Notes: generated by a model not told the origin, from the sequence alone. A stretch of DNA of 64,000 nucleotides from Eledone cirrhosa (GCA_964016885.1 OZ024741.1:275528001-275592000); one strand, 5' to 3'. Shown: positions 31,044 to 61,187, numbered from the stretch's first letter. Numbers and translations are program-made.

Positions 31044-34000
31044 ATAAATTGAAACAAAATGAAAACGAAATTTCATTTCTCACTCTTAGTATGGCACTTA
31101 CTTAAATGTAAGTATGCATGTATACGTACATACATATATGTATACAGACGTACAGTAGCATGCACACATATATATATATATATATATACATATATATATA
31201 TACATATGCATACAGGTACACATACATATATGCACGTATCAGTTTAGCGGCGCTTATTATAACGTCGCTTTGTTCGTTTGTAAACAAACTGAACAGCCTG
31301 AATTTATGCCATACGGTGTTAAGGCAACCACGTCACCTTTTTGTTCAACACTGACACAGGAACGATGTACTAGTTTCAAGCTTGTTAGCTATCATCAGCA
31401 CCGTTTACCCATCTGCCAGATAGTTGAACGTTCGAAAGTATATACTTTCCTTATGAAAATTAACGGCTGAGCAGCCTAATTTGCATATTGAGTGAGTTAA
31501 ATCGGTCAGGCATACCGAAAACGATAAATTGAAACAAAATGAAAACGAAATTTCATTTCTCACTCTTAGTATGGCACTTACTTAAATGTAAGTATGCATG
31601 TATACGTACATACATATATGTATACAGACGTACAGTAGCATGCACACATATATATATATATATATATACATATATACATATACATATGCATACAGGTACA
31701 CATACATATATGCACGTATCAGTTTAGCGGCGCTTATTATAACGTCGCTTTGTTCGTTTGTAAACAAACTGAACAGCCTGAATTTATGCCATACGGTGTT
31801 AAGGCAACCACGTCACCTTTTTGTTCAACACTGACACAGGAACGATGTACTAGTTTCAAGCTTGTTAGCTATCATCAGCACCGTTTACCCATCTGCCAGA
31901 TAGTTGAACGTTCGAAAGTATATACTTTCCTTATGAAAATTAACGGCTGAGCAGCCTAATTTGCATATTGAGTGAGTTAAATCGGTCAGGCATACCGAAA
32001 ACGATAAATTGAAACAAAATGAAAACGAAATTTCATTTCTCACTCTTAGTATGGCACTTACTTAAATGTAAGTATGCATGTATACGTACATACATATATG
32101 TATACAGACGTACAGTAGCATGCACACATATATATATATATATATATACATATATATATATACATATGCATACAGGTACACATACATATATGCACGTATC
32201 AGTTTAGCGGCGCTTATTATAACGTCGCTTTGTTCGTTTGTAAACAAACTGAACAGCCTGAATTTATGCCATACGGTGTTAAGGCAACCACGTCACCTTT
32301 TTGTTCAACACTGACACAGGAACGATGTACTAGTTTCAAGCTTGTTAGCTATCATCAGCACCGTTTACCCATCTGCCAGATAGTTGAACGTTCGAAAGTA
32401 TATACTTTCCTTATGAAAATTAACGGCTGAGCAGCCTAATTTGCATATTGAGTGAGTTAAATCGGTCAGGCATACCGAAAACGATAAATTGAAACAAAAT
32501 GAAAACGAAATTTCATTTCTCACTCTTAGTATGGCACTTACTTAAATGTAAGTATGCATGTATACGTACATACATATATGTATACAGACGTACAGTAGCA
32601 TGCACACATATATATATATATATATATACATATATACATATACATATGCATACAGGTACACATACATATATGCACGTATCAGTTTAGCGGCGCTTATTAT
32701 AACGTCGCTTTGTTCGTTTGTAAACAAACTGAACAGCCTGAATTTATGCCATACGGTGTTAAGGCAACCACGTCACCTTTTTGTTCAACACTGACACAGG
32801 AACGATGTACTAGTTTCAAGCTTGTTAGCTATCATCAGCACCGTTTACCCATCTGCCAGATAGTTGAACGTTCGAAAGTATATACTTTCCTTATGAAAAT
32901 TAACGGCTGAGCAGCCTAATTTGCATATTGAGTGAGTTAAATCGGTCAGGCATACCGAAAACGATAAATTGAAACAAAATGAAAACGAAATTTCATTTCT
33001 CACTCTTAGTATGGCACTTACTTAAATGTAAGTATGCATGTATACGTACATACATATATGTATACAGACGTACAGTAGCATGCACACATATATATATATA
33101 TATATATACATATATATATATACATATGCATACAGGTACACATACATATATGCACGTATCAGTTTAGCGGCGCTTATTATAACGTCGCTTTGTTCGTTTG
33201 TAAACAAACTGAACAGCCTGAATTTATGCCATACGGTGTTAAGGCAACCACGTCACCTTTTTGTTCAACACTGACACAGGAACGATGTACTAGTTTCAAG
33301 CTTGTTAGCTATCATCAGCACCGTTTACCCATCTGCCAGATAGTTGAACGTTCGAAAGTATATACTTTCCTTATGAAAATTAACGGCTGAGCAGCCTAAT
33401 TTGCATATTGAGTGAGTTAAATCGGTCAGGCATACCGAAAACGATAAATTGAAACAAAATGAAAACGAAATTTCATTTCTCACTCTTAGTATGGCACTTA
33501 CTTAAATGTAAGTATGCATGTATACGTACATACATATATGTATACAGACGTACAGTAGCATGCACACATATATATATATATATATATACATATATACATA
33601 TACATATGCATACAGGTACACATACATATATGCACGTATCAGTTTAGCGGCGCTTATTATAACGTCGCTTTGTTCGTTTGTAAACAAACTGAACAGCCTG
33701 AATTTATGCCATACGGTGTTAAGGCAACCACGTCACCTTTTTGTTCAACACTGACACAGGAACGATGTACTAGTTTCAAGCTTGTTAGCTATCATCAGCA
33801 CCGTTTACCCATCTGCCAGATAGTTGAACGTTCGAAAGTATATACTTTCCTTATGAAAATTAACGGCTGAGCAGCCTAATTTGCATATTGAGTGAGTTAA
33901 ATCGGTCAGGCATACCGAAAACGATAAATTGAAACAAAATGAAAACGAAATTTCATTTCTCACTCTTAGTATGGCACTTACTTAAATGTAAGTATGCATG

Positions 34001-34063
34001 TATACGTACATACATATATGTATACAGACGTACAGTAGCATGCACACATATATATATATATAT
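31044..34063 (-). mobile_element. Retrozyme-like tandem array, 480-bp unit x ~6.3, one minimal hammerhead ribozyme per unit
   Basis: Exact 480-bp period (ORF track repeats every 480). Near-identical copies, no credible ORF, HHR on minus strand, flanked by (TA)n. Confidence 0.85.
31361..31405 (-). ncRNA. Type I minimal hammerhead ribozyme (further copies starting 31841, 32321, 32801, 33281, 33761)
   Basis: Minus strand AACGGUG-CUGAUGA-U AGCU aaca AGCU U-GAA-ACUAGU-A^CAUCGUU: 7-bp stem I, core boxes, stem II with U.U closure, palindromic stem III ACUAGU, GUA cleavage triplet. Confidence 0.88.
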
Positions 34064-58559: not shown

Positions 58560-59628
58560 TATATATATATATATATATATGTATATATATATGTATATAT
58601 ATATGTATATATATATGTATATATATATATATATATATATATGTATATATATATGTATATATATATGTATATATATATATATATATATGTATATATATAT
58701 GTATATATATATATATATGTATATATATATGTATATATATATATATATATATGTGTATATATGTATATATATATCTATATATGTATATATATATGTATAT
58801 ATGTATATATATATGTATATATATATATATATATGTATATATATATGTATATATGTATATATATATGTATATATGTATATATATATGTATATGTATATAT
58901 ATATGTATATGTATATGTATATATATATGTATATGTATATATGTATATATATATGTATATATATATATATGTATATATATATATGTATATATATATGTAT
59001 ATATATATATATACATATATATATATACATATATATATACATATATATATATATATACATATATATATACATATATATATATATATACATATATATATAC
59101 ATATATATATACATATATATATACATATATATATATACATATATATATACATATATATATACATATATATATATACATATATATATACATATATATATAT
59201 ATACATATATATATACATATATATATATATACATATATATATACATATATATATATATACATATATATATATATATATATATATACATATATATATATAT
59301 ACATATATATATACATATATATATATATACATATATATATACATATATATATATATACATATATATATATATATATATATATATATATGTATATATATAT
59401 GTATATATATATATATATGTATATATATATATATATATATGTATATATATATGTATATATATATATATATGTATATATATATGTATATATATATATGTAT
59501 ATATATATATATATATATGTATATATATATGTATATATATATATATATGTATATATATATATATGTATATATATGTATATATATATATATATATGTATAT
59601 GTATATATATGTATATATATATATATGT
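58560..59628. repeat. (TA)n microsatellite
   Basis: Seen directly. Confidence 0.95.
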
Positions 59629-61187
59629 ACAATATATTTAGAAACACACAGATACATGCGGACACACACATATATACATGAATGCATCCGCACCCAACTG
59701 TGAGTTAAGGGTGCCAACTTCACCGATGTTGCTCAATGAGTGACCGGGACAGACCAATTCAGTTGAACTAGACTGAACCAGTATCAGAGTTAAAAATACA
59801 TTATGAAGAGAGAAGAAACATTTAGATATAATTAGTAATAAAATGTATCATACCTAAACTGCTCCTAAATTCCTCGACTACGTAGTTTCGTGGCATAAAC
59901 AAAAACAATATATCATAAAGATATAGAGTCCCTGCGAGGTCTGCCGACTTATCAAGAGGATACCTCATTTTACTAGTCTCAAGAACGCGTCTACACGACG
60001 TGAGAAAGAATCCCAAAAGGCGGAGGGGGAGATAGTCACGCGCTATAACGGTCGAGAAACAGAGCTAAGCCTCTTATAACCACGAAGAAAATACCACGGA
60101 GGCGGAGGGGGTATTCATATCGAGGCCGCAGAAGAGGTGGTGAAGAAGGCGAGAAGTATGAGTAATGGAAGCTTTCCAGTTGTCCCCACACTTCAAAGAT
60201 TGCTCGACCAGAGGGAGTTATTAACAATATATTTAGAAGCACACAGATACATGCGGACACACACATATATACATGAATGCATCCGCACCCAACTGTGAGT
60301 TAAGGGTGCCAACTTCACCGATGTTGCTCAATGAATGACCGGGACAGACCAATTCAGTTGAACTCCGCCTTTTGGGATTCTTTCTCACGTCGTGTAGACG
60401 CGTTCTTGAGACTAGTAAAATGAGGTATCCTCTTGATAAGTCGGCAGACCTCGCAGGGACTCTATATCTTTATGATATATTGTTTTTGTTTATGCCACGA
60501 AACTACGTAGTCGAGGAATTTAGGAGCAGTTTAGGTATGATACATTTTATTACTAATTATATCTAAATGTTTCTTCTCTCTTCATAATGTATTTTTAACT
60601 CTGATACTGGTTCAGTCTAGTTCAACTGAATTGGTCTGTCCCGGTCATTCATTGAGCAACATCGGTGAAGTTGGCACCCTTAACTCACAGTTGGGTGCGG
60701 ATGCATTCATGTATATATGTGTGTGTCCGCATGTATCTGTGTGTTTCTAAATATATTGTTAATAACTCCCTCTGGTCGAGCAATCTTTGAAGTGTGGGGA
60801 CAACTGGAAAGCTTCCATTACTCATACTTCTAGCCTTCTTCACCACCTCTTCTGCGGCCTCGATATGAATACCCCCTCCGCCTCCGTGGTATTTTCTTCG
60901 TGGTTATAAGAGGCTTAGCTCTGTTTCTCGACCGTTATATCGCGTGACTATCTCCCCCTCCGCCTTTTGGGATTCTTTCTCACGTCGTGTAGACGCGTTC
61001 TTGAGACTAGTAAAATGAGGTATCCTCTTGATAAGTCGGCAGACCTCGCAGGGACTCTATATCTTTATGATATATTGTTTTTGTTTATGCCACGAAACTA
61101 CGTAGTCGAGGAATTTAGGAGCAGTTTAGGTATGATACATTTTATTACTAATTATATCTAAATGTTTCTTCTCTCTTCATAATGTAT
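59629..61187. mobile_element. Retrozyme-like element, 595-bp unit, head-to-head inverted: ~1.2 units minus (59629-60364) + ~1.4 units plus (60363-61187)
   Basis: 595-bp period (59629/60224; 60372/60967). Strand flip at ...gttgaaCTccgcc... Three HHR copies. (TA)n flanks. Confidence 0.83.
60428..60517 (+). ncRNA. Variant (U3-A8) type I hammerhead ribozyme with enlarged stem II (copies 61023-61112 plus, 59871-59960 minus)
   Basis: UCCUC-UUGAUAA-GU c GGCA...UGCC AC-GAA-ACUACGUAGU-C^GAGGA: stem I UCCUC/GAGGA, palindromic stem III, GUC triplet, compensatory C3G8 to U3A8 change. Confidence 0.78.

Follow-up and report, generated by a model that had tools for sequence, protein, structure and literature searches.

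The 64,000-nt stretch of Eledone cirrhosa DNA analysed here (GCA_964016885.1 OZ024741.1:275528001-275592000, hereafter the window) carries, between positions 31,044 and 61,187, four families of non-coding hammerhead-bearing repeats with units of 480, 485, 525 and 595 bp (U480, U485, U525 and U595), together with remnants of three families of Penelope-like elements (PLE-A, PLE-B and PLE-C). An earlier note on the same sequence had described the four repeats as retrozyme-like tandem arrays that colonise (TA)n tracts. The repeats and their predicted ribozymes are as follows, where A and B denote the proximal and the distal of two fixed 3' ends found downstream of the ribozyme cut, and numbers with a plus sign are distances past that cut.

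31044-34047, minus strand: U480 retrozyme, a single arm of 6.3 units with six hammerheads (repeat and hammerhead scans)
31362-31404, minus strand: U480 type-I hammerhead, the first of the six, predicted to cut after GUA at 31368
44494-46867, minus strand: U485 left arm, 4.9 units with five hammerheads, its outer end being B, the distal site (+188)
46866-49595, plus strand: U485 right arm, 5.6 units with six hammerheads, its outer end being A, the proximal site (+82), which grades into TA
47020-47102, plus strand: U485 type-I hammerhead, predicted to cut after GUA at 47097
54861-55509, minus strand: U525 left arm, 1.24 units, hammerhead core at 55110, outer end B (+179)
55507-55707, plus strand: U525 right arm, hammerhead core at 55576, outer end A (+61)
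59629-60364, minus strand: U595 left arm, 1.24 units with one hammerhead, outer end B (+247)
60363-61187, plus strand: U595 right arm, 1.39 units with two hammerheads, outer end A (+80)
60428-60517, plus strand: U595 type-I hammerhead with a U3-A8 core, predicted to cut after GUC at 60512

The four periods, and the places where the earlier note had put the arrays, were indeed recovered. Its description of the repeats as tandem arrays stands for U480 and U485, which are multi-unit in the window, and barely for U525 and U595, each of which consists here of ~1.2 copies and an inverted arm; multi-unit arrays of all four families exist at other loci. (TA)n adjoins all four elements. The two U485 arms face each other head to head across 44494-49595, and the single U480 arm has its 3' end at the distal fixed site (31044, ~+322 past the cut), while its 5' end vanishes within a TA run internal to the unit. 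The U480 units between 31368 and 33767 differ only by one base, which alternates from unit to unit and so gives a 960-bp period.

Descriptor scans and constrained folds upheld the further claim that each unit carries one type-I hammerhead with a perfectly palindromic stem III in all four families, in U595 by way of a U3-A8 core that reads UUGAUAA in place of CUGANGA. The U480 ribozyme has a short stem II that starts with a U.U mismatch and a stem III that is a 6-nt palindrome. Those of U485 and U595 have a two-part long stem II and a 10-nt palindromic stem III, and the U525 left-arm ribozyme, with a C.A mismatch at the base of stem II, is predicted to cut after GUU at 55040. Stem II is long and broken by an internal loop in U485, U525 and U595, in all of which stem III could also form a hairpin within the monomer, according to the constrained folds; in an older U485 subfamily stem III is non-palindromic. 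An Rfam scan of the whole window gave no hammerhead among the 150 of 517 matches listed, which were mostly TA-driven microRNA models. The longest ATG frames span 48-113 codons on either strand with the units treated as circles, a measure of length only, not of likeness to a protein library. None of the four units holds an open reading frame for reverse transcriptase (RT) plus GIY-YIG endonuclease, and hence they are not autonomous PLEs despite their PLE-like behaviour. Circular folds of the units are predicted to be more stable than those of shuffled sequences (z of -3.5 to -11, 20 shuffles), which is no proof of circles.

In copies that had diverged to below 90% identity, collected by BLAST and not by the ribozyme descriptor, the catalytic core is kept in 501/516, 220/221, 144/148 and 55/55 cases (97-100%), against 78-86% for the remainder of the unit; these counts are of copies and not of independent events. 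Compensatory changes in stem pairs were seen in U480, U485 and U525 and none in U595, for which only eight alignments were available. Judged by this pattern of substitution, the putative ribozyme cores are under selection and conserved as a functional fold.

All four families are dispersed throughout the genome. The 43-nt U480 ribozyme occurs 9,990 times as an exact pattern, its reversed control not once, and two 24-mers of U595 have 7,811 and 6,895 exact matches; candidate places number at least 1,689 for U485 and at least 1,815 for U525, of which 40 were scored for each family. Members 99-100% identical to each other lie on many contigs and have no long terminal repeats (LTRs). With thousands of exact copies and no ATG frame longer than 113 codons, the units fit the earlier description as retrozyme-like, non-coding and dispersed. 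For closer study we sampled, from the best hits, 20 loci per family in U485, U525 and U595 and, in order of position, 20 loci of U480 and 40 of U595. Among the U485, U525 and U595 insertions, 149 of 156 3' ends enter (TA)n (85/90 in the 60 best-hit loci and 64/66 in the 40 position-ordered U595 loci), against a TA background of 3.1% (199,600 positions, drawn from 20 fixed regions of 10 kb each), so that homing to (TA)n, as the earlier note had supposed, holds genome-wide. The 5' ends of single-arm insertions are TA-flanked in 23/30 and 11/16 cases, and the 3' ends of U525 and U595 tend to have longer perfect TA runs than the 5' ends, with an unclear picture in U485. Telomerase-like addition of TA at the 3' ends was also considered as a source of these runs; the TA-flanked 5' ends favour pre-existing tracts, without deciding the matter.

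The studied interval is 29% TA-rich, compared with 0-10% in the fixed regions (mean ~3%), and is a TA-rich sink: the four families lie together here because a TA-dense region collects insertions. The flanks of U595 insertions hold U480 in 10/40, PLE-B in 6/40 and PLE-C in 7/40 cases, compared with 3, 1 and 4 of the 20 fixed regions, the total lengths compared being similar. Since these flanks often hold other families, neighbourhood is no guide to the mobiliser. At least 12 other sequence types of type-I hammerhead occur in the fetched flanks (L021-L172).

The evidence that bears most directly on how the repeats were inserted comes from their ends and from the head-to-head inversions, both of which had escaped the earlier note. 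Each family has two fixed 3' ends, A and B, at +82 and +188-194 in U485, +61 and +179 in U525, +80 and +244-251 in U595, and about +263 and +322 in U480, while the 5' ends vary; the A-B tails thus measure 59, 106-112, 118 or 164-171 nt, and older subfamilies (~80% identity) retain the same ends. In two-armed insertions one arm ends at A and the other at B. This pairing holds in 49 of 55 cases (27/30 in the best-hit loci and 22/25 in the position-ordered U595 loci, where one is a local duplicate), and A+A or B+B never occurs, the other six having one irregular end. All three two-armed elements of the window obey the rule, and in U480 the six loci with both anchors recovered show A+B, as judged by eye. 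Of the single-arm U595 insertions, eight have their end at A and eight at B.

The inner ends behave differently. The variable 5' ends of the two arms are joined with 0-4 nt of overlap in most cases, and the inner breakpoints vary independently between the arms. Near-identical arms reach ~10 units and carry locus-private variants in every unit of both arms; for example, 345T is present in every U485 copy of the window and in none of 20 other loci, and 588G in all seven copies of L065. Such variants, common to all units of both arms, imply that both complementary DNAs (cDNAs) came from one RNA or one source. Exact counts drop by merely 12% across the ribozyme cut site, and 1 of 66 arms ends exactly there; copying therefore mostly traverses the ribozyme site, so the template would be a circle or an uncut multimer. 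A pile-up of 5' ends exactly at the cut was rejected, the apparent position-1 stops being mostly BLAST edge effects.

The PLE sequences in the same interval are the following.

36880-40106, minus strand: PLE-A, 5'-truncated with frameshifting gaps; RT, CX4CxxC linker and GIY-YIG (Pfam)
54321-54816, plus strand: PLE-B 3' fragment, a separate insertion, with a degenerate minimal hammerhead at 54579 and its proximal-site end beside TA
55745-56611, minus strand: second PLE-B insertion, with the C-terminus of the endonuclease and a terminal repeat whose end is the proximal site (55745)
58343-58558, plus strand: PLE-C terminal repeat with a minimal hammerhead core at 58357 and its proximal-site end adjoining TA

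The earlier note had taken 36885-40106 for a PLE remnant with a hammerhead, which is confirmed by the truncated RT and GIY-YIG element found there. It had likewise assigned 54321-56611 to one remnant; the sequence is indeed PLE-B, but it represents two insertions, which face one TA tract into which U525 was inserted. The probable PLE at 58343-58559 proved to be the 3' end of a third family, PLE-C, 92% identical to a copy at L163. The window copy of PLE-A is 98.9% identical to an intact copy, with gaps of 1, 2 and 15 nt. It has a hammerhead core at 37085 with a cut after 37057, and its 3' end is the distal fixed site, adjoining TA. PLE-A is a young family, many of the 96 copies scored having a 775-codon open frame, and these intact copies show that autonomous PLEs co-exist with the four retrozymes in the genome. 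It has ends at +129 and +177, pairs A with B in 10/10 two-armed copies, and has TA-rich outer ends in 30/30 (by eye). PLE-B also has two ends, and its second insertion carries a short inverted arm that bears the tail (~56544-56611). PLE tails here are ~44-60 nt. The hammerheads of PLE-B and PLE-C are minimal or degenerate, and neither matched the hammerhead descriptor. The linker of PLE-A and PLE-B is of the CX2-5CxxC type, which according to PMC8557442 belongs to Neptune and Nematis. Beyond the window, L163:2444-5684 holds a PLE-C open frame of 1,080 codons, seemingly without the cysteine-rich front of the endonuclease, and L113:50-1513 another PLE type with a CxC linker, possibly Hydra-like.

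Taken together, the four repeats show the insertion signature of PLEs, and a PLE enzyme is therefore their likely writer. We put at roughly 0.8 the probability that they are four families of non-LTR retrozymes inserted in (TA)n by a PLE-type RT/endonuclease that primes at both ends of the break. The two fixed ends and the inverted arms are stronger evidence for such an enzyme than the earlier note had offered. We propose that arrays are transcribed, that the hammerheads cut the transcripts to RNAs of one or a few units, and that these may be circularised as in described retrozymes. The enzyme, probably as a dimer, would bind the stretch between A and B, cut both strands of a TA tract and prime copying of the repeat RNA at two internal sites, one for each DNA end. 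On circular or still-uncut RNA the two cDNAs would then extend over a variable length, often of several units, and joining of their free ends would yield the head-to-head arms. Loss of one arm would leave a single arm, ending at A or B equally often. The odds that circles, dimer circles included, serve as template are about even or slightly better.

A number of observations weigh against this reading, in part or as a whole, and we set them out with the rivals on which they bear. The U485, U525 and one of the U595 samples consist of best hits and are skewed to young, long copies. The unit tails of 59-171 nt exceed the 30-40 bp described for PLEs. No extended homology was found between the units and the terminal repeats of PLE-A, PLE-B and PLE-C, the three compared. 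According to 10.64898/2026.07.22.740005, 8/9 Xenopus retrozymes failed to cleave in vitro. The LINE-type (long interspersed nuclear element) 3' ends in the window adjoin TA too (by eye), and TA targeting alone is therefore no pointer to PLEs. Mobilisation by an RTE- or L1-type LINE through twin priming, with TA tracts simply collecting the copies, would agree with these ends, with the abundance of LINE fragments in the window and with the inversions that twin priming yields. Twin priming in LINEs, however, leaves one fixed 3' end and one variable internal end, whereas here the two outer ends are constant and the inner breakpoints vary independently; the ends also lack poly(A) or a LINE-type repeat tail, and PLE-A and PLE-B show precisely the two-end pattern. 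We thus consider a LINE origin very unlikely. Amplification in place, in which a PLE terminal repeat landed once and grew by unequal crossing-over (a route proposed in 10.64898/2026.07.22.740005), the inversions being later rearrangements or assembly errors, finds some footing in a U525 satellite with units 95-97% identical, in the duplicated insertions of L154 and L206 and in the presence of an assembly gap in the window. It is hardly credible and already largely refuted: fold-back artefacts or random inversions would give identical or random ends instead of A paired with B in 49/55 and A+A or B+B never, family members 99-100% identical lie on many contigs, and comparison of the units with the terminal repeats of PLE-A, PLE-B and PLE-C gave no homology.

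The remaining rival differs from our preferred explanation only in the template. Here the units would be non-autonomous mini-PLEs with an inherited hammerhead and no circles; an array already in place would be read through into a linear multimer, which would serve as template, and the PLE footprint would be the same. Copying across the cut site agrees with this just as well. The long U525 satellite of L155 and L156 (G000:C4, ~18.68-18.72 Mb; two stretches ~30 kb apart) is a possible source, and such a many-unit array could give long linear templates, so that a circle is not required. Mixed arrays occur as well: the L025 array contains one unit from another subfamily, and U480 units, besides alternating in the window, have a variable period at L084 and L088, which is unlike the product of a single monomer circle. 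Ten U595 arms stop between -16 and +20 of the cut, compared with ~4.8 expected (p = 0.025 in a window set post hoc), so some templates may be cut linear RNA. According to PMC11167929, the Anolis PLE mainly used uncut RNA in vitro, and ribozyme mutants left insertion unaffected. On the other side, near-identical arms of up to ~10 units with private variants would call for one homogeneous source array per variant, arrays would shrink at every round through 5' truncation, and the ribozyme cores appear, from their substitutions, to be under selection. We regard a linear template as a serious possibility, well short of even odds. The variants common to every copy of a U595 locus comprise 18 A>G and 8 T>C (p = 0.0013 on base content), and the singleton variants 7 and 14, five loci below 95% identity being left out; the A>G excess would be compatible with editing of the sense RNA before copying. 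It was picked out after the fact, has no counterpart in U485 (1 vs 4) or U525 (3 vs 4), is faint when private variants are counted (12 vs 11, p = 0.18) and comes with a non-significant 5'-neighbour bias (13/18, p = 0.20).

The earlier note had named the neighbouring PLEs as the probable mobilisers. This suggestion found no support: comparison of the neighbours with the units gave neither extended homology nor the tail motif described below, and the co-location follows TA density (29% vs 3%). A candidate recognition sequence, new here, lies in the units themselves, as a 15-nt motif that U485, U525 and U595 carry between their ends A and B.

47208-47222, plus strand: U485 tail motif, 15 nt (unit positions 111-125), between ends A and B
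54944-54958, left arm, minus strand: U525 tail motif, identical to the U485 15-mer
60650-60664, right arm, plus strand: U595 tail motif, 12/15 match at the same position

The identical 15-mer of U485 and U525 scores above all 40 shuffles, and the motif is predicted to fold as an AC-rich loop in U485 and U595. An AC-rich stem-loop is also where the Anolis enzyme starts, according to PMC11167929. Comparison across the four units found no tail motif in U480. The motif is 98% conserved in U485 compared with 84% for the rest (27/460 windows as high), while its conservation is unconvincing in U525 (85 vs 78%; 160/446 windows) and in U595 (88 vs 86%; 263/510 windows). As conservation within the family is clear in U485 only, a function of the motif is not established; the degenerate form of its pattern was composed after U595 had been seen.

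The search for a PLE that bears the motif gave no candidate, which adds to the points against a PLE writer. The three PLE families of the window do not contain it, and the 900 nt downstream of PLE endonuclease matches in the loci covered contained no convincing instance. A motif pattern designed to avoid young U485 and U525 hit 65 places; the 20 inspected were old U485, U525 or other repeats, with no motif-bearing PLE among them. The motif also occurs in hammerhead repeats with a long stem II (L172:1300-2350, L055:827-1350, L090:1250-1650, L052, L175 and L215), and at L169 an unrelated minisatellite has 10-bp units that resemble it. The motif may serve as a docking signal, or it may be left over from a common ancestor. 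Tentatively, U485, U525, U595 and at least two further families (L172/L055 and L090) might form one lineage of circular-RNA parasites with a long stem II, in which the AC-rich 15-nt loop docks a PLE dimer that primes the A and B ends on one circle and runs round it in both cDNAs, a proposal we think doubtful as it stands. If true, the docking loop would be the first cis-signal for retrozyme mobilisation, together with an asymmetric two-site rule for PLE integration.

Comparison with known systems was made on the main text or passages of the papers cited, and the statements that follow are limited to these. Metazoan non-LTR retrozymes are already known as a class (PMC7229834), and like them the present families consist of non-coding head-to-tail units with one type-I hammerhead each, in thousands of dispersed copies that co-exist with PLEs; the U.U mismatch at the base of stem II in U480 is shared with axolotl HHR_Amex2 (PMC7229834). 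Retrozyme units of 51-972 bp, for which a PLE origin is argued, have been reported (10.64898/2026.07.22.740005), and the present sizes fall within this range, so the earlier view of the units as unusually long does not survive; neither unit length nor the U3-A8 core is new, both being already in print. Homology to PLE terminal repeats is found in 24/57 Xenopus retrozyme families (10.64898/2026.07.22.740005), unlike the units here, as judged against PLE-A, PLE-B and PLE-C only. Unlike described retrozymes, the present families have two fixed ends, two-armed insertions and a microsatellite target, and three of the four ribozymes have a two-part long stem II and a 10-nt palindromic stem III. A literature search found no two-armed or TA-targeted retrozyme insertions; supplements, subscription journals and Repbase/Dfam may hold these families.

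The closest likeness is to endonuclease-bearing (EN+) PLEs. The Anolis Poseidon element PAc cuts AT-rich DNA on both strands in vitro and begins reverse transcription at two positions within the RNA, which delimit the genomic tail (PMC11167929); PLE insertions include inverted truncated copies, with a tail of 30-40 bp that is often at one end only, and a bias for (TA)n is known from Naiad and Hydra (PMC8557442). The retrozymes share with EN+ PLEs the two internal starts around a tail, the inverted 5'-truncated copy, the often one-sided tail, the AT-rich or (TA)n target and a hammerhead upstream of the start sites, but they have no coding capacity, tails of 59-171 instead of 30-40 nt and arms of up to ~10 units. 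The rule of one A and one B is near-absolute here, whereas the PAc start site in vitro is alike on both strands (PMC11167929). Non-autonomous Chlamys PLEs (such as MRC1, PMC8557442) likewise lack coding capacity and are inserted by a PLE enzyme as multiple head-to-tail copies. Those of MRC1 type, however, resemble their autonomous partner at the 3' end, while no partner was found for the units here, and Naiad and Chlamys lack the canonical hammerheads (PMC8557442) seen in the present families. The U3-A8 covariation of the U595 core recurs in the PLE hammerheads of Schistosoma mansoni (PMC4209133), where it sits in minimal ribozymes, mostly single motifs, and not in a full ribozyme of a multi-unit retrozyme. 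Relatives of U595 have C3-G8 (L172) or U3.G8 (L055 and L232) cores, which may trace a route to U3-A8.

The literature proposes, and does not show, that animal retrozymes are mobilised by PLE enzymes and that these enzymes turn circular RNA into tandem DNA. With the footprint of the enzyme at base resolution in these families, both proposals become testable with defined RNAs, starts and targets, and an intact young PLE (PLE-A) is at hand for such tests. The strict pairing of A with B also constrains PLE integration itself, which the PLE literature calls unresolved, and since one rule holds in four unrelated or distantly related units with tails of 59-171 nt, the enzyme would seem to measure no fixed distance. 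The shared 15-nt motif is a concrete candidate for recognition by the enzyme. A small RNA that steers insertion of multimers into TA repeats would serve genome writing.

The rest of the window is also rich in repeats. Positions 1-20160 are a 20-kb minisatellite with a 24-bp unit in ~830 copies, which yields long open frames of low complexity. LINE fragments lie at 22479-28658, 43614-44191, 50649-53900 and 57036-58142, their 3' ends adjoining TA tracts; a LINE RT/endonuclease copy occupies ~23135-26400 on the minus strand, and there are further RTE-like pieces. The assembly gap, of 200 N, spans 58143-58342, between a LINE fragment and the PLE-C end. Elsewhere in the genome, L153 (G000:C2:327607300-327617299) holds an inverted duplication of ~8 kb in which old U485 and U480 insertions are mirrored. 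Within the window, a cluster of short interspersed repeats occurs twice, at 36118-36900 and 40120-41064, with 90-95% identity between the copies, and flanks PLE-A.

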